Source: Phycisphaera mikurensis NBRC 102666
GTDB lineage: Bacteria; Planctomycetota; Phycisphaerae; Phycisphaerales; Phycisphaeraceae
Direction of reading: 5' to 3'
Length of the DNA stretch: 32,000 nt
Assembly: GCF_000284115.1 (NCBI RefSeq)
Contig: NC_017080.1
Span: 1,710,001-1,742,000, forward strand
Within the stretch, counting starts at the first letter, position 1. Every line of letters starts with the position of its first letter. The notes below the pieces were generated by a model that saw only the letters and a list, made by a program, of their open reading frames with translations, did not search any database and was not told where the DNA came from. Shown in pieces: positions 3,514-16,433 of the stretch. The position numbers and the translations under genes were made by a program.

Positions 3514-5126
3514 CGCCTGAACCGGCCTTCCTCGTCAGCATCGCCAAGCCGCTGCTGCTCTTCGCCGTCCTGCTGGGCTGGGGGCGGTTGGTTTCCTTCT
3601 TCGACAAGGACGCGGCGCACTTCCACCTCAAGCGGACGCTGTTCAACGGGCTGCACCTGCTCGGCGGTGTCGCCGGCTTCGGCGTGATGCTCCTGGTTCC
3701 GCTGTTCTGGCTCGGCCTCCCGCTGGGCGTGCTGCTGCTGGCCGGGTCGATCGCGGGCTACGTCTACTACCGCAACGGCCAGGTCGACGACAAGCAGAAG
3801 TGGACGCTCGACCTGGAGGATCTCCGCCGCCAGATGGCGGAGAAGCGGCAGGGCAAGGCCCAGAAGGCGACGAGCGTCAAGCTCCGCCGCAACGGCCAGG
3901 AGGTCGAGGTGCCCCGCGGCGACGACCCGCGCGTGGAGGCTCACGAGCAGCTCGAGCGGATGCTCAAGTTCTCGGTCGAGCGGGACGCGGAGACGATGGA
4001 CCTGGTGGTCGAGGACCAGAAGGTCCAGCTCTCCGCGAAGATCGACGGCGTGCGTTACCCCATCGAGTCGCCGGCACCGGACGTCGCGCTCGCCGCGATC
4101 GACTTCATGAAGCAGGCGGCCGGGCTGGACATCGACGACCGCCGCCGCCGGCAGAGCGGACGCGTGCAGGCGGAGGTGCTCGACGAGGAGGGCGGCTCCC
4201 GCTCGGCGGAGCTGGAGATCCTCACCGCGGGCAGCACCCGCGGCGTGCAGATGCAGGTGACGCTGAACCCCGACGCGAGCACCGAGATGCCCCTGGACCG
4301 GCTGGGCCTGCTGCCCAAGCAGCTGGAGTACCTCGAGTCGGTGCTCGGCGAGAACAAGGGCGCGGTGGTGCTCGCGGCGGACAAGCACCAGGGGGCGCCG
4401 ACGACGATGTTCGCGATGCTCAGCCGCGTCGATCCCTACACCAACTCGGCGGTGCTGATCGCCAGCGACGATCAGATCGACCTCGAGGGCATCGACCGGC
4501 ACGTCTTCGACCGCGGCAAGCCGGCCTCGGAGTTCAACTCCGAGCTGGCCGGCATCCTGCGGACCGATCCGAACATCGTGATGCTCGACCGGATCGCCGA
4601 TGCGAAGACGGTCGCGCTGATCGCGGGGCTCTCCAACGAGATCCGGTTCATGCTGCCGTTGCCGCAGCCGGACACGACCACCGCGGTGAAGGCTTACCTC
4701 AAGGCGTCCGGCGATCCGAAGGAGGCCGCCAAAGGCCTCTCGACGGTGATCGGTCAGCGCCTGGTCCGCCGGCTGTGCACGACCTGTCGCGTTCCCTACA
4801 GCCCCAACCCGGCCGCGCTCAAGAAGCTGGGGATCCCGCAGGACAAGGTCGGGACGCTCTACAAGTCCAGCGGGAAGGTCCTCGTGAAGGAGCAGCAGCA
4901 GGCCTGCCCCGACTGCCACGGCATCGCGTACCGCGGGCGCGTCGGGGTCTTCGAGGTGATGCCGGTCGACGACCGTGCCCGCAAGCACATGGCCGCCGGC
5001 GAGATGGACGCGCTGCGGAGCCACCTCCGCAAGCAGGGCATGGTCTACCTCCAGGAGGCCGGCCTCGCCAAGGTGGTCGAGGGCGTGACGGACATCAAGG
5101 AGGTTCAGCGGGTGCTGGCGGAGTAG
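3510..5126 (+). CDS. membrane-anchored GspE/PilB-like protein with degenerate ATPase motifs (predicted pseudo-ATPase)
   Basis: ATG 3510 overlaps the pilT stop (ATGA). There are three N-terminal hydrophobic helices. A GspE N2-like region (SAKIDGVRYPIE...IDDRRRRQSGRV) and a C-terminal tetracysteine motif (CTTCRVPY...CPDCHGIAYRGRVGVFEV) are retained. Walker A reads LAADKHQGAPTT, Walker B NIVMLDRIAD and the His box PLPQPDT. Confidence 0.85.
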   Translation: MTPEPAFLVSIAKPLLLFAVLLGWGRLVSFFDKDAAHFHLKRTLFNGLHLLGGVAGFGVMLLVPLFWLGLPLGVLLLAGSIAGYVYYRNGQVDDKQKWTLDLEDLRRQMAEKRQGKAQKATSVKLRRNGQEVEVPRGDDPRVEAHEQLERMLKFSVERDAETMDLVVEDQKVQLSAKIDGVRYPIESPAPDVALAAIDFMKQAAGLDIDDRRRRQSGRVQAEVLDEEGGSRSAELEILTAGSTRGVQMQVTLNPDASTEMPLDRLGLLPKQLEYLESVLGENKGAVVLAADKHQGAPTTMFAMLSRVDPYTNSAVLIASDDQIDLEGIDRHVFDRGKPASEFNSELAGILRTDPNIVMLDRIADAKTVALIAGLSNEIRFMLPLPQPDTTTAVKAYLKASGDPKEAAKGLSTVIGQRLVRRLCTTCRVPYSPNPAALKKLGIPQDKVGTLYKSSGKVLVKEQQQACPDCHGIAYRGRVGVFEVMPVDDRARKHMAAGEMDALRSHLRKQGMVYLQEAGLAKVVEGVTDIKEVQRVLAE

Positions 5127-5130
5127 GAGA

Positions 5131-5242
5131 GAAGCGGAGAAGCGGAGAAGCGGAGAAGCGACGAAGCGACGAAGCGGAGAAGCGAAGAGGCGGAGAAGCG
5201 AAGAAGCGACGAAGCGGAGAAGCGAAGAAGCGGAGAAGTCAG
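5131..5242. repeat. tandem array of ~14 degenerate 8-bp units (GAAGCGGA / GAAGCGAC / GAAGCGAA), array R1
   Basis: Read directly from the sequence, starting 5 nt after the TAG at 5124-5126. The array is almost T-free on the + strand. Confidence 0.95.
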
Positions 5243-5366: not shown

Positions 5367-7091
5367 ATGATCCTCAACATCCTCGTCCTCGTCCTCGTCC
5401 TCGCGATGGCCATCTTCTGGTCGACGCAGGGGCTGTTCAGCGCCTTCATCCACCTGGTCGCGACGGTGGTCGCCGGCGCGATCGCTTTCGCGGTGTGGGA
5501 GCCGGTGACGCTGGGGCTGTTGCTCGATCCGCTCACGTCGTGGGCGTGGGCGACCGGGCTGCTGCTGCCCTTCGCGCTGGCGCTGATCGTGTTGCGGATC
5601 CTCAGCAACAAGGTGATCGGCGGCAACCTGAAGCTGCCGAGCCTCGCCGACCAGGGCCTCGCCGGCCTCGTCGGGGCGGTCAGCGGCGTCCTGACGGCGG
5701 GCGTGTGCCTGCTGGGGGTGTCGTTCCTGCCGCTGGGCCCGGCGCTGCTGGGCTACCAGCCCGTGGAGGTGCAGACCACCGCGCGCCTCGGCCCGCCCAC
5801 CAACGACGCCGTGACGACCTCGCTCTGGATCCCGGTGGACCGGCTGACCGCCGACTTCTTCGCCTTCGCGTCCACCCACGGATTCTCGAGCCACCGCCCC
5901 CTGGGCCTGCTGCGGCCGGATCTCGACGAGGCGGCGGCGCGATTCCGCATCGGCCAGTTCTACGACCCCAACGCCTCGCTCGTGGCCAACCCATCGACCG
6001 TCGCGGTCGAGGCGGTCCGGGTCTACGACGGCGAGCTGCCCGCCGAGGTGCCGGCGCTGCTGGGGCAGTTCATCGCCGAGTCGGCCCCGACCCGCAACGG
6101 CGACCGGCTCGTGCTGGTGACCACGCGGTGGGAGGCGCTCAAGGACACGGCCACCTTCGACGAGGGCATCCTCCGGCTCCCGCCGGTGCAGACCGTGCTG
6201 CTCGCGGCGCCCCCGGCCGGGCCGCTCGCCATGCACCTGCCGGTGGGCTGGAGCAAGAAGCCGGTGACCTCCAGCACCGCCGCGTTCTACGGCGTGGTGG
6301 ACAACCGCAGCTACGCGAGCAGCGAGCTGCCCGAGGAGACGATCACCTTCGTCTACGCGATCCCCGAGAACCAGGACCCCGTGTACTTCGAGACCCGGAT
6401 GCTGCGGATCCCGCTGGGCGAGCCGGAGCAGGGCGCCGCCGGGGACGGAGCGGTCGTGGCCGACCTGCTCGGGGAACCGGCCATCGAGGCCGGCGAAGAG
6501 GGCGACGCGGGCGGCGGGCCCGGCGTCAACGTCTCGCCGCAGAACGCCGCGGCCGCGGCGGCGGTGGGCGAGCCCGTCGGCAACGCCGCCTTGAAGGCGC
6601 TGTCGATCGAGGCGACGAACAGGCTGCCGGGTCGCATCTCCATCAACGCGGCGAGCGGGCTCGACGTGGAAGAGAAGGAGGTGATCTCCGGGCGGCAGAA
6701 CGTGCAAAAAGGCGACCGCACCGCGACGGTCGACTCCATCCGCACGCCGCCGGGCCAGGTCATGGTCCGCCTGGAGCTGTCGCCGATGAGCACCAGCCAG
6801 GCATTGCCCACGCGGGTCGTCGCGAAAGTCGCCGGGGGGGACGGCCGGTACAAGCTCGTGGACACCCGCGGGAACGAGTTCTTCGCCCGTGCCACCGTGT
6901 GGCAGAAGGACGCCGGCGAGCAGGAGATCCACGTGACCGACCGCCTCGACAACGCGGCAGACCTCCCGATCAACCGCCTCCAGGACGGCGACCGGCTGTT
7001 CGCCTACTTCGCCATGCCCGACGGGCTCGTGCTTGACCGGTTCGTGGTCGGCACGATGGAGCAGGACGTCGACTTCACGGTGGGGGAGTGA
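5367..7091 (+). CDS. CvpA-family membrane protein fused to a ~400-aa C-terminal domain of unknown function
   Basis: ATG 5367 gives [31 protein letters not shown]... with four hydrophobic helices resembling colicin V production protein (CvpA). I do not recognise any motif in the remainder. Confidence 0.8.
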
Positions 7092-7100
7092 CGTCTCCTT

Positions 7101-7156
7101 TGGAGCAAGAGACGAAGAGACGAAGAGCCGGAGAGACGAAGACAGCAGGAGGCGCG
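7101..7156. repeat. octamer array R2 (GAGACGAA GAGACGAA GAGCCGGA GAGACGAA ...)
   Basis: Read directly from the sequence. It lies between the CvpA-like stop (7091) and the conserved start region of murD. Confidence 0.85.
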
Positions 7157-8521: not shown

Positions 8522-8704
8522 TCCGCCCGAAGGAGCGGGCCCAAGCGGCCGCTCACCGCCGGTCGGGGCGTCACGCCGCCGACCGCTCGGCACTCCCTCC
8601 ATCGGCCGGCACCGGCCGAAGCCCGGGTGCCACGCCGCTTGCGGGGCGGGGCGTCCGCCGGGGACGCGGCCCGCTCCCGGCGCCTCCCGCGTCCGCGGAG
8701 CGGG

Positions 8705-9619
8705 TCAGCCGTCGAACGCGTCGTTGTCGGCGGTGCCGTCGCCGTCGAGGTCGTCCACGGCCGCGGGGGCGCTCATCGAGCCGTGGCCGTCGAGGTACGT
8801 GAACCCGGCGACGCCGCCCTGGTTCCGTGTCGCCGGGGCGGAGCGGTAGAGCCAGGGGTGCTCGGGGTCGTAGCCGGCGACGTTCTCCGCCGGCCCGCTC
8901 TCGTAGTAGGGCAGCGGGTCGCCGACGCTCCCGGAGCGGCCACGCTCGGAGCCCACGGGCGGCGCGGGTGCGTCCAGCGCGTAGACGGCCTTTCCGCCGT
9001 CGCCCGGCTCGGCCGAGGCAACACCGTTGCGCGAGCCGGCGGTGTCGCCCAGCGCGATCGTGCCGGACTCGTCGCGGATCTCGCGGCCGAGGCGGGCGTG
9101 GAAGGTGGGCGTGGAGCGGGCGTTGCCCAGGTACCGGAAGTTGTAGCCGTAGCCGCCGTGCCGAGCGACGTCGTCGCCGGCGGCGACGGTCGGGTCGGCC
9201 ACGGGGGTGACCGCAGTCCGCGCCGCCTGCTCTGCCGGCGTCGTCGACAGCTCGTGGAAGAAGATCTTGGTGAAGCCCGCGTCGACCTCCCGCTCCGTCA
9301 GCGACGGCGAGCGGAAGGCCTCGACCGCCGGCATGAAGGGGAAGAGGTAATCCACCCACCTCGGCTTGGTGCTCATGCCTCCGGCGGTCACGGTGGAGGA
9401 GCCCGTCGAGGACGAGTGCATCGGCAGGAAGTCCTTCCGCTCCACCGCGTACGCGGTGAGGGCGATGCCGATCTGCCGGAGGTTCGACAGCGACTGCGAC
9501 GAGCGTGCGGCGCCGCGGGCGGCCCCGAGCGCGGGCAGGAGGATGCCGATCAGCAGGGCGATGATCGAGATGACGACGAGGAGCTCGATGAGCGTGAAGC
9601 CGGGGCGAGGGTTTCGCAT
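8705..9619 (-). CDS. prepilin-type N-terminal cleavage/methylation domain protein (DUF1559-like pseudopilin)
   Basis: [51 protein letters not shown]..., with C-terminal FTYLDGHGS. The ATG is at 9617-9619 on the complement. The track ORF extends to a TTG at 9649. Confidence 0.85.
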
Positions 9620-12849: not shown

Positions 12850-13722
12850 ATGCAGGAAGCCATCAGCAAGGCGGCAACGCTCGTCGAGGCCCACGCCTAC
12901 ATCCGCGAGTTCCGCGGCAAGGTCGTCGTGGTGAAGGTTGGCGGGTCCATCATGGACCAGCCCGAGGCGCTGGGGAACCTGCTCGGCGACGTGAGCTTCA
13001 TGCACGCCGTGGGCATGCGGCCGGTGGTGGTGCACGGCGGCGGCAAAGCCATCAACGCGGCGATGTCCGACGCGGGGCTCGATGCGCAGTTCGTGCAGGG
13101 CCGCCGCTACACCGACGAGCGGACGCTGGCGATCGCCGAGCACGTGCTCATCAACGACATCAACGCCGCCGCGGTCGGCCACTTGAAGGAGGCGGGCACG
13201 CCCGCGATGGGCCTGCACTCCCTGGGCTCGTGCGTCGTCTTCGCGAAGCGGCTCACGCTCCGCGGCGAGCAGAACCGGCGCATCGACATCGGCATGGTCG
13301 GCGAGGTCGAGTGGGTCAACACCGAGCTGCTGCGGGCCGTGCTCGACGCCGGCAGCATCCCGGTCATCGCGCCCATCGCCCGGGATCCCGCCGGCGGCAA
13401 GCTCAACATCAACGCCGACTCGGTCGCCGGCCACGTCGCCGGGGCGCTGCGGGCCGAGAAGTTCGTGCTCGTGTCCGACACCCACGGCATCCGCACCGAC
13501 CCCGACTCCGAAGAGACCGCCTCGACGCTGACGCGCGACGCGACGGACGGGCTGATCCGGGACGGCGTGATCGACGGCGGCATGCTGCCGAAGGTGGAGG
13601 CGGCGCTCACCGCGCTCGGCGGCGGGTGCCGGAAGGCGCACATCGTGGACGGGCGGATCCCGCACGCGCTGCTGCTGGAGGTGTACACCGAGGCGGGGAT
13701 CGGGACCGAGATCGTGCTCTGA
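12850..13722 (+). CDS. argB: acetylglutamate kinase
   Basis: VVVKVGGS, VVVHGGG, RYTDERTL, NINADSVAG and GGMLPKVEAA are typical ArgB motifs. The start is ATG 12850. Confidence 0.95.
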   Translation: MQEAISKAATLVEAHAYIREFRGKVVVVKVGGSIMDQPEALGNLLGDVSFMHAVGMRPVVVHGGGKAINAAMSDAGLDAQFVQGRRYTDERTLAIAEHVLINDINAAAVGHLKEAGTPAMGLHSLGSCVVFAKRLTLRGEQNRRIDIGMVGEVEWVNTELLRAVLDAGSIPVIAPIARDPAGGKLNINADSVAGHVAGALRAEKFVLVSDTHGIRTDPDSEETASTLTRDATDGLIRDGVIDGGMLPKVEAALTALGGGCRKAHIVDGRIPHALLLEVYTEAGIGTEIVL

Positions 13723-13732
13723 TCCGCGTGGG

Positions 13733-14325
13733 GAACCGCACGCTGCTCCGCTCTGCCCGCCACCCTGGCCGCGGTCGCTGCGTGGCGACGCCACGCTGTC
13801 CGACTCCCCATCCAGCTCCTTCGCGCTCAAGGCAGACGGAGCGGCGTCGCCGCTCCGCTCTCGGAGCCAACGGCGCCACGCTGTCCGCGTCGCGATCCAG
13901 CTCCTTCGCGCACAAGCAGACAGAGCGGCGTCGCCGCTCAGCTCTCGGAGCCACCCTGGCCGCGCTAGCTGCGTGGCGACGCCACGCTGTCCGACTCCCA
14001 GTTCCAGCTCCTTCGCGCACAAGGCAGACAGAGCGGCGTCGCCGCTCAGCTCTCGCAGCCAACCTGGCCGCGTTAGCTGCGTGGCGACGCCACGCTGTCC
14101 GGGTCCCCATCCAGCTTCCTCGCGCACAAGCCCGACAGAGCGGCGTCGCCGCTCAGCTCTCGCAGCCGGCCTGGCCGCGTTAGCTGCGTGGCGACGCCAC
14201 GCTGTCCGGGTCCCCATCCAGCTTCCTCGCGCACAAGCCAGACAGAGCGGCGTCGCCGCTCAGCTCTCGCAGCCAGTTTGGCCGCGATGGCTGCGTGGCG
14301 ACGCCACGCTTTCCGGGTCGCGATC
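13733..14325. repeat. tandem repeat, ~107-bp unit, 5 full and 2 partial copies, each with two perfect 17-bp palindromes
   Basis: Unit starts (CTGCGTGGCGAC) are at 13778, 13969, 14077, 14184 and 14291, plus a head-deleted unit at ~13873. The palindromes are GCGTGGCG-A-CGCCACGC and GAGCGGCG-T-CGCCGCTC. Confidence 0.95.
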
Positions 14326-14383
14326 CGGCCCCGACGGGACGCGGTGTCTGCCGAAGCGCCGGCGGCTCGGCCGCGGCGGCCGG

Positions 14384-15229
14384 CTACTTGAGGTCCCGCT
14401 GCTGGAAGCCGACGATCCCGACGGAGACGAAGGTCGCGGACAGGGCGAAGAGAATCAGCGCACTGCGGGCGATCATCGGCCAGGGCGGGTACGCGAGGAA
14501 GGTGCGGACCCAGAAGCCGGCGTGGTACGAGATGAACCAGTGGCGGAGGCTCTTGAAGTAGGGCAGCTGCCCGAGCACGAGGTCGACGAAGAGCACCGAG
14601 AGCGTGAGGATCGTCGCGGCGGCGGGCTTCATCCGGAAGCACGAGAACATGAAACCCAGCGAGGCGATCACGCAGGTGGCGTAGGCGAGGCAGAGCACGC
14701 CGCGGGCGTAGCGGTAGAGCCCCTCGCCGGTCCCGTAGAAGGCGAAGAGCTGCTCGTCGGGGATGACGATGAAGAGCCTGCCGAGGCCGCCGCGGTAGAG
14801 CGACGCCAGCGTGAGGGCGGTGACGCCCAGGAACGCGACGAGGCTGAGGGTGTAGACGAGGCAGGCGGCGTACTTCACGCCGAGCAGGCGGACCCGCGAG
14901 ACCGGGCGGGCGAGGACCAGCCGCATCGTGCCCTCCTCGACCTCCTTGGCGACGATGTCGCCGGAGACGAGCGCGACGTACAGGCCGCCCAGGAAAGTGA
15001 AGCTGAAGGCGATGATGACCACCGCCAGCGTGAGGCCCTGGTAGTGCGAAGCGAACTCCAGGCCGTTCTCGCCGAGCAGCTTCGCGATCTCCTCCTTCGG
15101 CCGCGGGTGCTGCAGCATCGCGAGGATCGCGCCCTGCAGCGCGAGGAAGGCGCCGAAGCCGATGTACGTCCGCTTGCGGGCGTAAAGCTTGAAGAGCTCG
15201 GAGGCGAGTTGGTGGAGGAGGAGGGGGAT
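14384..15229 (-). CDS. ABC-2 type transporter permease
   Basis: Six hydrophobic helices with ELFKLYARKRTYIGFGAFL at the N-terminus and EEGTMRLVLARPVSR, typical of ABC-2 permeases. The start is unresolved. Options are ATC 15229, ATG 15118 (loses TM1), or GTG 15544 (reads through octamer array R3 and overlaps the ATPase gene by 74 nt). Confidence 0.8.
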   Translation of the reverse strand: MPLLLHQLASELFKLYARKRTYIGFGAFLALQGAILAMLQHPRPKEEIAKLLGENGLEFASHYQGLTLAVVIIAFSFTFLGGLYVALVSGDIVAKEVEEGTMRLVLARPVSRVRLLGVKYAACLVYTLSLVAFLGVTALTLASLYRGGLGRLFIVIPDEQLFAFYGTGEGLYRYARGVLCLAYATCVIASLGFMFSCFRMKPAAATILTLSVLFVDLVLGQLPYFKSLRHWFISYHAGFWVRTFLAYPPWPMIARSALILFALSATFVSVGIVGFQQRDLK

Positions 15230-15252
15230 GGTTCGGGGTGGGTGGGGGGGGG

Positions 15253-15428
15253 GAAGAGGCGAAGAAGCGGAGAAGCGAAGAAGCGGAGAAGCGAAGAAGC
15301 GAAGAAGCGGAGAAGCGAAGAAGTGAAGAAGCGGAGAAGCGAAGAAGTGGGGAAGCGAAGAAGCGGAGAAGCGAAGAAGTGGGGAAGCGGAGAAGCGAAG
15401 AAGTGGGGAAGTGGGGAATTGGAAGGGA
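15253..15428. repeat. octamer array R3, ~22 units (GAAGAAGC GGAGAAGC GAAGAAGT GGGGAAGC ...), preceded by a G10 tract (15244-15253)
   Basis: Read directly from the sequence. It lies between the ABC ATPase stop (15471) and the first TM helix of the permease. Confidence 0.95.
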
Positions 15429-15470
15429 GTTGGCGCAGCCCGATAGCTTGGCCGGCGCGTTTGGCTCTTT

Positions 15471-16433
15471 TTAGTTTCGCTCCTCTTTGCTTGCTCCGTG
15501 CCTGGTTGCAGCCGTCGCTCGCGCGGCCTCGGTTTTGGTTGCACGCTCGAGATAGAAGGCTTCGAGCGTCGGTGCGATGGGGGCGAAGGCGGAGACGTCG
15601 AAGCCCGCGTTCACGAGGTGGGCGTTCGCCCGGGCGAGCGGGACGTCGCCGCGGACCGTGACGGTTTCGGGCTCCTGGCCGTCGCGGTCCGCGGATTCGA
15701 CGAGGCCCGCTGCGGCGAGGGAGGCGAGGGCTTCCGCGGGGCGGTCGGTCCGGATGCGGACGCGGCGGCGGGCGGCGGCGGTGGCGGCACGCCAGTCGCC
15801 CTCGAAGACGTGCCGGCCGCGGTGCAGCACGGTGACGGTCCCGCAGAGCTTCTCCACCTCGGCGAGCAGGTGGCTGCTGAAGAGGATCGTGAGATCCAGC
15901 TCGGCGTGCAGCTCCAGCAGCAGCTCGCGGAAGGCGGCGATGCCCTGCGGGTCGAGGCCGTCGGTGGGCTCGTCGAGGATGAGCACCTCGGGCGTGGGCA
16001 GCAGCGCCTGCGCCAGCGCGAGCCGCTGGCGCATGCCGTGCGAGTAGGTGGAGACCTTGGCGTGGATCCGCTCCGCGAGGCCGACCCGCTCCACGACGGC
16101 GTCGATCTCCGCCTCGCTCACCCGGCGCGTGAGGTTGGAGAAGGCCCGCAGGTTCCGCCGGGCCGAGAGGTAGTCGTAGAAGCACGGCGCCTCGAAGATG
16201 GCGCCCACCCTCCCCAGCGCCGCGCCGCGTTCCGCCGCGACGTCGTGGCCGTTCACCAGCGTCCGGCCCGCGTCGGGGTGCACCTGGCCGAGCAGCATGC
16301 CCAGCGTGGTGGACTTGCCGGCGCCGTTGTGGCCGAGCAGGCCGTGGATCGCGCCCCGCGGCACCTCCAGCGACAGCCCCTCGACGGCCGGCCGGCCCGC
16401 GAAGGCCTTCGACAGGTTCTCGAGGCGGATCAC
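15471..16433 (-). CDS. ABC transporter ATP-binding protein (ABC-2 exporter type)
   Basis: Walker A GHNGAGKSTT, signature YSHGMRQRLALAQAL, Walker B VLILDEPTDGLD and H-loop SSHLL are all present. Confidence 0.95.
   Translation of the reverse strand: MIRLENLSKAFAGRPAVEGLSLEVPRGAIHGLLGHNGAGKSTTLGMLLGQVHPDAGRTLVNGHDVAAERGAALGRVGAIFEAPCFYDYLSARRNLRAFSNLTRRVSEAEIDAVVERVGLAERIHAKVSTYSHGMRQRLALAQALLPTPEVLILDEPTDGLDPQGIAAFRELLLELHAELDLTILFSSHLLAEVEKLCGTVTVLHRGRHVFEGDWRAATAAARRRVRIRTDRPAEALASLAAAGLVESADRDGQEPETVTVRGDVPLARANAHLVNAGFDVSAFAPIAPTLEAFYLERATKTEAARATAATRHGASKEERN
15649..15694. repeat. 46-bp inverted-repeat element copy 4 (inside the ABC ATPase CDS)
   Basis: Exact arms at 15649-15658 and 15685-15694 with a 26-nt spacer. 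The stem extends inward (15/16 over 16 nt). It is translated on the - strand as ADRDGQEPETVTVRG. Confidence 0.9.

Follow-up and report, generated by a model that had tools for sequence, protein, structure and literature searches.

The gap between two convergent genes of Phycisphaera mikurensis NBRC 102666, argB and an ABC-2 family permease gene, is filled by a tandem repeat whose 107-bp unit combines an imperfect inverted repeat, carrying perfect 17-bp palindromes, with a short linker. We studied it in a window of 32,000 nucleotides (contig NC_017080.1, positions 1,710,001 to 1,742,000; positions below are counted from the first letter of this window unless another locus is named). In this window, the argB stop codon lies at 13720-13722 (+) and that of the minus-strand permease at 14384-14386, leaving a gap of 661 bp, and the array spans 13725-14330 with about 5.5 units. 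We give about even odds (roughly 50%) to the reading that the array is a lineage-specific, non-coding palindromic minisatellite, amplified locally and resembling type 2 bacterial interspersed mosaic elements (BIME-2) or the doublets of repetitive extragenic palindromes (REPs) called REPINs, which, if functional, likely acts at the RNA level.

Architecture of the array

Tandem Repeats Finder (TRF) reported a period of 107 with 4.2 copies and 91% matches at 13874-14326, along with an 85-bp deletion variant from 13789, and a repeat search placed six unit copies in register at spacings of 107/84/108/107/107. The palindrome GCGTGGCGACGCCACGC occurs exactly at 13780, 13971, 14079, 14186, and 14293, and the palindrome GAGCGGCGTCGCCGCTC at 13839, 13923, 14031, 14138, and 14245, with regular centre-to-centre spacings of 48 and 59-60 bp. 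TRF and the exact-match search agree with the first-pass annotation of this DNA, which had described a tandem repeat of about 107 bp between convergent genes with five copies of each of two 17-bp palindromes, and the unit starts that it named are correct. Outside the array, neither 17-mer was found anywhere in the whole 32 kb with up to 2 mismatches (0 matches, about 0.25-0.29 being expected from shuffles), and both the tandem structure and the palindromes are far above chance. Pairwise identity between units ranges from 76 to 97%, with 97% between units 3 and 4 and the strongest divergence in the edge units.

The anatomy given in the first-pass annotation was accurate yet incomplete, as it overlooked that the palindromes sit in inverted arms of about 35 nt, that a sixth, degenerate arm lies at the left, and that the unit described as head-deleted lacks 22 nt from the centre of its hairpin. 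Each 107-bp unit combines two arms of about 35 nt, which together make up an imperfect inverted repeat of 73 nt, with a 34-nt linker. The left (L) arm, GACAGAGCGGCGTCGCCGCTCAGCTCTCGCAGCCA, and the right (R) arm, as reverse complement GACAGCGTGGCGTCGCCACGCAGCTAACGCGGCCA, are 80% alike and separated by 3-5 nt; the inverted repeats I11, I12, I14, and I15 correspondingly have arms of 35-38 nt that are 76-80% complementary and 3-5 nt apart. Every arm displays the layout CnGA-CAG-[8 bp]-T-[8 bp]-CAGC with the core consensus CnGA-CAG-GNGNGGCG-T-CGCCNCNC, the foot before the stem reading CAGA in four, CCGA in one, and CGGA in six of 11 arms. If a conserved A.A mismatch is allowed for, the stem of the arm reaches 10 bp; in the deleted module, a G-C pair takes the place of this mismatch. 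Six modules can be told apart, one degenerate (13725-13800), one with a 22-nt tip deletion (13835-13885), and four full, and the linkers between them (repeat family D3) are 90-100% identical. From left to right, the parts are:

13725-13760, plus strand: arm L0, leftmost and degenerate, imperfect palindrome GCGTGGGGAACCGCACGC; begins 3 nt past the argB stop; 74% identity in register
13766-13800, minus strand: arm R0, perfect palindrome at 13780-13796
13801-13834, unstranded: linker 0, 34 nt, repeat family D3
13835-13885, plus strand: module 1 with the 22-nt central deletion, seen by TRF as an 85-bp period
13835-13869: arm L1 of module 1; palindrome 13839-13855, which two flanking changes lengthen to 21 bp
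13870-13885: truncated arm R1 of module 1, joined to L1
13886-13918, unstranded: linker 1
13919-13991, plus strand: module 2 (I15), 73 nt; L2 13919-13953, R2 13957-13991, palindromes 13923-13939 and 13971-13987
13992-14026, unstranded: linker 2, 35 nt
14027-14099, plus strand: module 3 (I14); L3 14027-14061, R3 14065-14099, palindromes 14031-14047 and 14079-14095
14100-14133, unstranded: linker 3
14134-14206, plus strand: module 4 (I11); L4 14134-14168, R4 14172-14206, palindromes 14138-14154 and 14186-14202
14207-14240, unstranded: linker 4
14241-14313, plus strand: module 5 (I12); L5 14241-14275, R5 14279-14313, palindromes 14245-14261 and 14293-14309
14314-14330, unstranded: partial last linker and array end, followed by a unique GC-rich stretch up to the ABC-2 stop

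The identity of the 34-nt linkers points to duplication of the 107-bp unit as a whole and not to separate insertions, and the near-identical central units (97%), the degenerate or truncated edges, and the repeated linkers together argue for local amplification with homogenisation. We infer that about six copies arose in place from a single 107-bp unit, at a break in gene order just downstream of argB; unequal recombination or replication slippage is the probable mechanism.

Coding status and predicted folding

The array does not code for protein, as the first-pass annotation had also held: its GC content by codon phase is flat (0.73/0.71/0.71), against a GC3 of 0.97-0.98 in the flanking genes, and most frames contain stops. 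Membership of a known Rfam RNA family was rejected, only miRNA-precursor models having produced scores, of 17-29 bits where the thresholds are 70-168. Predicted folding energies of the 73-mers lie between -50 and -57 kcal/mol on both strands, with z from -5 to -8, namely -49.8 kcal/mol for module 2 (z = -4.9), -53.1 (+ strand) and -56.7 kcal/mol (- strand) for module 3 (z about -8), -52.7 kcal/mol for module 4, and -49.8 kcal/mol for module 5, while L0 and R0 together fold no better than shuffled sequence (z = -0.77). For a single 17-mer, a 7-bp stem with a 3-nt loop is predicted at -13 to -15 kcal/mol.

Transcripts arriving from argB (+) or from the ABC transporter operon (-) would fold into a stack of very stable stem-loops, in which the local 7-bp hairpins could merge into the much more stable 73-nt hairpins. 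Such structures could hinder read-through and protect the 3' ends of both convergent transcripts against exonucleases, in the way that the account of REPs and BIMEs in PMC3333891 describes for these elements.

Genomic context and search for further copies

The two genes that frame the array are the following:

12850-13722, plus strand: argB, acetylglutamate kinase, 290 aa, PF00696; its 3' end faces the array
14384-15544, minus strand: ABC-2 family permease gene as called, 386 aa, PF12679; its 3' end faces the array

The argB orthologues, Phycisphaerae proteins of 72-86% identity, are named acetylglutamate kinase. Looking at the argB loci of three relatives (argB 86%, 85%, and 76% identical), we did not find the array. 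All three keep the upstream order of flavodoxin, a small open reading frame (ORF), and argB, and their downstream genes differ from those of the window: argB is followed there (loci L228, L229, and L236) by a same-strand argF, encoding ornithine transcarbamylase (OTCase), or by a different convergent gene with tetratricopeptide repeats (TPR). The arrangement with argF after argB is probably the ancestral state. In the window, gene order breaks right after argB (13722/13723), and the array and the convergent ABC transporter operon stand in its place. Because the relatives keep the upstream synteny and differ downstream, without the array, the latter can be placed at a lineage-specific synteny breakpoint and regarded as evolutionarily young.

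One of these relatives, a metagenomic one with an argB of 86% identity (L228), has an element of about 200 bp resembling miniature inverted-repeat transposable elements (MITEs) directly downstream of argB, at the position of the array. Its copies at 6923-7118 and 9307-9505 of that locus lie 2.4 kb apart and carry terminal inverted repeats of about 40 nt, GCAGGACCGCAGATGGACGCAGATCAAAGAGCGGATGGGA.

Further copies of the arms were sought in 46.8 kb of the source contig around the array (about 1.2% of the genome), in which none was found elsewhere with up to 9/35 mismatches; among the roughly 35 genes of this region there was no transposase or Y1 HuH enzyme, no Cas, and no partition protein. The arm pattern used to scan sequence collections, GACNGMGYGGCGWCGCCRCKCNGC, matched only the array within the window. 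GTDB species-representative genomes yielded 105 single matches in unrelated high-GC taxa and no multi-copy genome; the source's own array was not among these matches, presumably being masked, and the inclusion of the source genome in the scan was not confirmed. Metagenomes gave more than 120 single matches and no multi-copy contig among the matches listed, and there were 0 matches in viral contigs (pattern scan) and 0 in plasmids (blastn). When the unit, the arms, and the 73-mer were compared with the fetched loci by blastn and nhmmer, nothing extended past the pre-selected 24-47 nt or so.

Repeats of other kinds occur in the neighbourhood. Octamer arrays (GCGGAGAA/AGAAGCGG) were seen at 5118-5238 (15 copies) and 15253-15418 (about 20 copies), and also at 7107-7142. 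They are long and imperfect and occupy short gaps between same-strand genes, one following a T2SSE gene, upstream of a gene for a Colicin-V-like protein, and the other separating the genes of the ABC ATPase and the ABC-2 permease, where it is absorbed into the called permease ORF as SPLLRFSA repeats; the called 5' part of the permease gene overlaps this octamer repeat and may not be coding. Both arrays are purine-rich on the plus strand, though the adjoining genes are on opposite strands, and short-read contigs of the Logan collection break within both. A protein search with the octamer-encoded peptide matched only unrelated hypothetical proteins. About 0.9-1.05 kb upstream of the window start (source contig L234, 4867-5009), an inverted repeat, CGTGCGCAATTTTCCGATCG ... 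CGATCGGAAAATTGCGCACG, lies between BacA and HhH-GPD genes. Its arms are about 100 nt apart, it is unusually AT-rich for this genome, and its right arm coincides with the end of a Logan contig, so that a dispersed element of the MITE type is possible.

Evidence against the interpretation and alternative explanations

Several observations weigh against the favoured reading of the array as a locally amplified minisatellite with a possible role at the RNA level. That close relatives lack the array speaks against a conserved function of any kind. No U-tract follows the hairpins, the post-stem sequences are not T-rich, and a terminator scan of 13725-14330 came back empty. The first-pass annotation had proposed stacked bidirectional terminators, and of the two marks of an intrinsic terminator, a GC-rich hairpin and a U-tract, the array has the first and lacks the second, and the proposal is plausible as far as the hairpins go. 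High-GC bacteria may use terminators without U-tracts, so that the array may still function as one. Within the 73-nt element of the four full units, 0/8 variable columns fall in the palindromes (p about 0.005 by our own calculation), and across the whole unit of 108 columns it is 0/28 in 34 palindrome positions, a figure inflated by the array end. Two half-site positions distinguish the L from the R palindrome, and each change is mirrored, which keeps each palindrome perfect but adds mismatches to the long L-R hairpin. Invariance and mirrored changes together hint at upkeep of the 17-mers as such, which would fit protein binding at least as well as an RNA role. For the 73-nt hairpin itself there are no compensatory changes; variation is apical, unit 2 losing a pair and unit 5 gaining one. 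Finally, the array appears confined to the argB/ABC-2 locus, as we infer from the collection scans and from a readable contig that amounts to about 1.2% of the genome, which leaves room for dispersal of the arms at low density.

It is possible, if on the unlikely side, that the array arose by the same local amplification and is a neutral by-product, its palindromes being kept by hairpin-templated repair or gene conversion. Its absence from the nearest relatives and its place at a synteny breakpoint would suit a functionless repeat, as would the decaying edge units and the lack of promoter-like or terminator-like signals, our scan of the array having returned neither sigma-70 promoters nor canonical terminators. 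The octamer arrays at 5118-5238 and 15253-15418, in the same 46.8 kb, likewise suggest that this genome tolerates intergenic tandem arrays. However, that all ten 17-mers are invariant while the sequence around them varies is more than simple decay would leave, and effects on mRNA are documented in PMC3333891 for REP/BIME-like hairpins downstream of genes in other bacteria.

Rather unlikely, in our view, is that the palindromes serve a dimeric DNA-binding protein as ten symmetric sites of the operator type (GNGNGGCG-N-CGCCNCNC); by analogy, this protein might be a nucleoid or topology factor, as gyrase is at BIME-2, or might make the array a centromere-like or insulator site comparable to sopC. 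Ten perfect 17-bp palindromes at regular spacings of 48 and 59-60 bp, invariant while linkers and hairpin tips vary, are what such sites would look like, and the two mirrored half-site differences between the palindrome types preserve dyad symmetry. Complementarity moreover reaches the central base, which a hairpin with a minimum loop of 3 nt cannot use, and binding of BIMEs by gyrase, integration host factor (IHF), and Pol I is documented in PMC3333891. Yet no parA/parB-type gene, helix-turn-helix (HTH) regulator, or other obvious partner is found among the roughly 35 surrounding genes, the motif does not recur elsewhere in the window, and mirrored changes are equally expected for hairpins.

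Just as doubtful is a cluster of a second dispersed REP/REPIN-like family, served by a Y1 HuH transposase of a type that does not recognise GGGT, such as class 3 with its CnGA foot, or lacking a dedicated transposase, as do the CGTC-type REPs. All 11 arms follow the pattern CnGA-CAG-stem, and the stem of up to 10 bp with its A.A mismatch matches the grammar of REPs, a 5' tetranucleotide foot followed by an imperfect stem. According to the part of PMC6006769 on class 3, TnpA_Y1 proteins of this class occur mainly in Planctomycetes, and hairpins with a CnGA foot flank their genes and reach up to about 600 copies per genome; large REP clusters, as treated in PMC3733652, consist for the most part of dimers that recur in tandem together with flanking DNA. 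Short reads bear on the same question: up to 13793, within the first unit, the window is reproduced without a difference by the Logan assembly of SRR12223476, and the ends of two independent Logan assemblies of the organism, at 13793 and 13795, fall midway through the first perfect palindrome. These ends lie 11-13 nt ahead of the earliest 31-mer with a repeat inside the window (13777-13807), which could mean copies elsewhere. Coverage loss or errors at a GC-rich hairpin and population heterogeneity are further possible causes, and as evidence of dispersal the breaks were judged uninformative, given that contigs break elsewhere too and that the two samples end 2 nt apart. What speaks against a second family is that neither other copies nor a Y1 or any other transposase were found in the 46.8 kb and that the collection scans yielded no multi-copy genome or contig. 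In addition, class 3 hairpins are weak and interrupted, with 4-nt loops, against perfect 8-bp stems here, the agreement in CnGA does not exceed the 80% identity that L and R arms show overall, and Table S1 of PMC6006769 lists for P. mikurensis one TnpA_Y1 only, of subclass 2.2. An undescribed planctomycete palindromic system, be it a CnGA-type second REP-like family (class 3 or another HuH-Y1) or a ten-operator array recruiting a dimeric or topology protein, is accordingly held by us at similarly low odds.

Collapse or expansion of the repeat in assembly, which the first-pass annotation had named as a possible refutation, is highly improbable: the two Logan short-read assemblies do break at the first palindrome (13793 and 13795), but the units have diverged (76-97%), a deletion variant and degenerate edges are unique, the array start is exactly reproduced in an independent assembly, and GCA_014207395.1 (contig JACHEL010000004.1) is identical to the window across the array, with the same gene pair and the same 661-bp gap.

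Implications

The array is real but fairly ordinary, one more intergenic tandem array of inverted palindromic units. Should the favoured reading of a locally amplified, BIME-2-like minisatellite be true, arrays of hairpin modules would also arise outside Proteobacteria, and a BIME-like architecture could come about by local amplification without a resident REP transposase acting on it. Unusual is its coexistence in one genome with an unrelated system of REPs and a REP-associated tyrosine transposase (RAYT). The array is a likely variable number tandem repeat (VNTR) marker and breaks short-read assemblies, two of which stop within the first of its palindromes. In a phylum where genetic tools are scarce, it might also serve as a natural bidirectional terminator or insulator. 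The array would gain greater weight if the 17-mers bind protein or if the arms represent a second mobile family.

Comparison with known systems

[quoted passage not shown] Unlike in a CRISPR array, its repeat measures 73 nt, the linkers in the place of spacers are themselves repeated, and cas genes or Cas-like domains are absent from the 46.8 kb, in line with the first-pass annotation, which had already set this possibility aside. A MITE was likewise rejected: inverted arms are present, but neither a target-site duplication nor, in the 46.8 kb, other copies were found. The sopC site of plasmid F comprises 12 units of 43 bp with a short inverted repeat in each. Both loci consist of tandem units with a dyad-symmetric site; in contrast to sopC, the array is chromosomal, lies in a convergent-gene gap with no partition genes nearby, and carries two sites per unit within a long inverted repeat.

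Among REP-related systems, the CGTC-tagged REPs described by Di Nocera et al. 2013 (PMC3733652) are recognised there by a terminal tag, CGTC (or TGTC/CCTC), by stems of 8-9 bp that begin with A/T pairs, by loops of 4-5 nt, and by a tail reading CCA. The complementary strand of the arms ends in ...CTGTC, but the stem base is all G/C, one base alone makes up the centre, and a CCA tail is lacking, so that the arms were not assigned to this type. Class 3 HuH-Y1 hairpins, in the relevant part of PMC6006769, share with the arms a CnGA 5' of a GC-rich hairpin, and the class is found mainly in Planctomycetes. They differ (e.g., CAGAGCCGCGACCGTCAGGGAGCG) in weak, interrupted stems, 4-nt loops, and a directly abutting foot, whereas the stems of the array are perfect over 8 bp; the resemblance of the foot is a lead, not membership.

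P. mikurensis has a REP system of its own. Quentin et al. 2018 list in Table S1 of PMC6006769 a subclass 2.2 TnpA_REP (RAYT), BAM05346.1, for PmikA01, flanked by REPs of the form GGGTGCCACGCC(C/G)CTTG(G/C)GGGGTGGC. The window holds one copy of it:

8625-8650, plus strand: resident REP GGGTGCCACGCCGCTTGCGGGG, not part of the array, 22/22 nt match to the BAM05346.1 REP of PMC6006769 Table S1

This copy lies in the gap between convergent MurD-like and DUF1559 genes, and a Logan contig (L002) starts beside it at 8622, consistent with a dispersed repeat. Resident REP and array arms are alike in being GC-rich extragenic hairpins of the same genome that occur between convergent genes. Unlike the arms, the resident REP reads GGGT-GCCACGCC(C/G)-CTTG-(G/C)GGGGTGGC, with a 9-bp stem containing a mismatch and a 4-nt loop. 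Kinship of the two was rejected, as they have only the 7-mer GCCACGC in common; judged by sequence, the array is not built from the RAYT-mobilised REP of this genome.

Measured against REPs in general, the arms are short extragenic stem-loop palindromes (35 nt, 8-bp perfect stem, non-coding, convergent gap), and REPs as portrayed in PMC3733652 typically sit between convergent genes. As in a REPIN or BIME unit, two inverted copies form one long hairpin (I11, I12, I14, and I15). The foot departs from that of REPs (GTAG, GT[AG]G, or GGGT in P. mikurensis), all arms reading CnGA-CAG, and the association of REPs with a flanked RAYT is not seen either, the published BAM05346.1 REPs being unrelated to the arms and the 46.8 kb containing no Y1 transposase. 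REPs also come in tens to hundreds of copies scattered over a genome; in the 1.2% or so of this genome that could be read, no arm was seen outside the array.

The REPIN clusters of P. fluorescens SBW25 (Bertels and Rainey 2011, PMC3116915) are similar in that REP doublets form a long hairpin, of 71-110 bp there and 73 nt here, and are repeated in tandem with flanking sequence, four REPINs occupying more than 700 bp there and 5-6 modules about 600 bp here. REPINs of SBW25 are mainly dispersed singletons, hundreds per genome, with notable clusters by RAYT genes; in the 46.8 kb around the array, by contrast, neither singleton copies nor a nearby RAYT were found.

The E. coli BIME-2, tandem y/z2 REP-iREP pairs in the Bachellier/Gilson nomenclature as summarised by Ton-Hoang et al. 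2012 (PMC3333891), is described there as two inversely oriented REP variants, joined by a short linker and accompanied by flanking sequence, which recur several times in tandem and are well conserved from copy to copy at one locus. DNA gyrase binds and cleaves BIME-2. Unlike BIME-2, the array is not made of the dispersed REP family of its genome: it has neither sequence similarity nor a GTAG foot, its arms are not of the RAYT-flanking type, and no dispersed copies were found in the 46.8 kb or in the collection scans; REPs of E. coli are, moreover, imperfect stems with loops, whereas the array has perfect 8-bp palindromes around one central base. The layout, on the other hand, is that of BIME-2, with L arm, 3-5 nt, R arm, and 34-nt linker reiterated 5-6 times: two variants of a 30-40-nt palindromic unit alternate in orientation with a short inner and a longer flanking linker, the whole unit is repeated in tandem, its copies are conserved within the locus, and it is extragenic at gene 3' ends. 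The first-pass suggestion of a BIME/REP-like array therefore holds for the architecture and fails for membership of a REP family, foot and sequence being different and the 46.8 kb and the collection scans having shown no second copy; among the three roles proposed there, which also included terminator hairpins and protein-binding sites, it is the one that fits the architecture of the array best.

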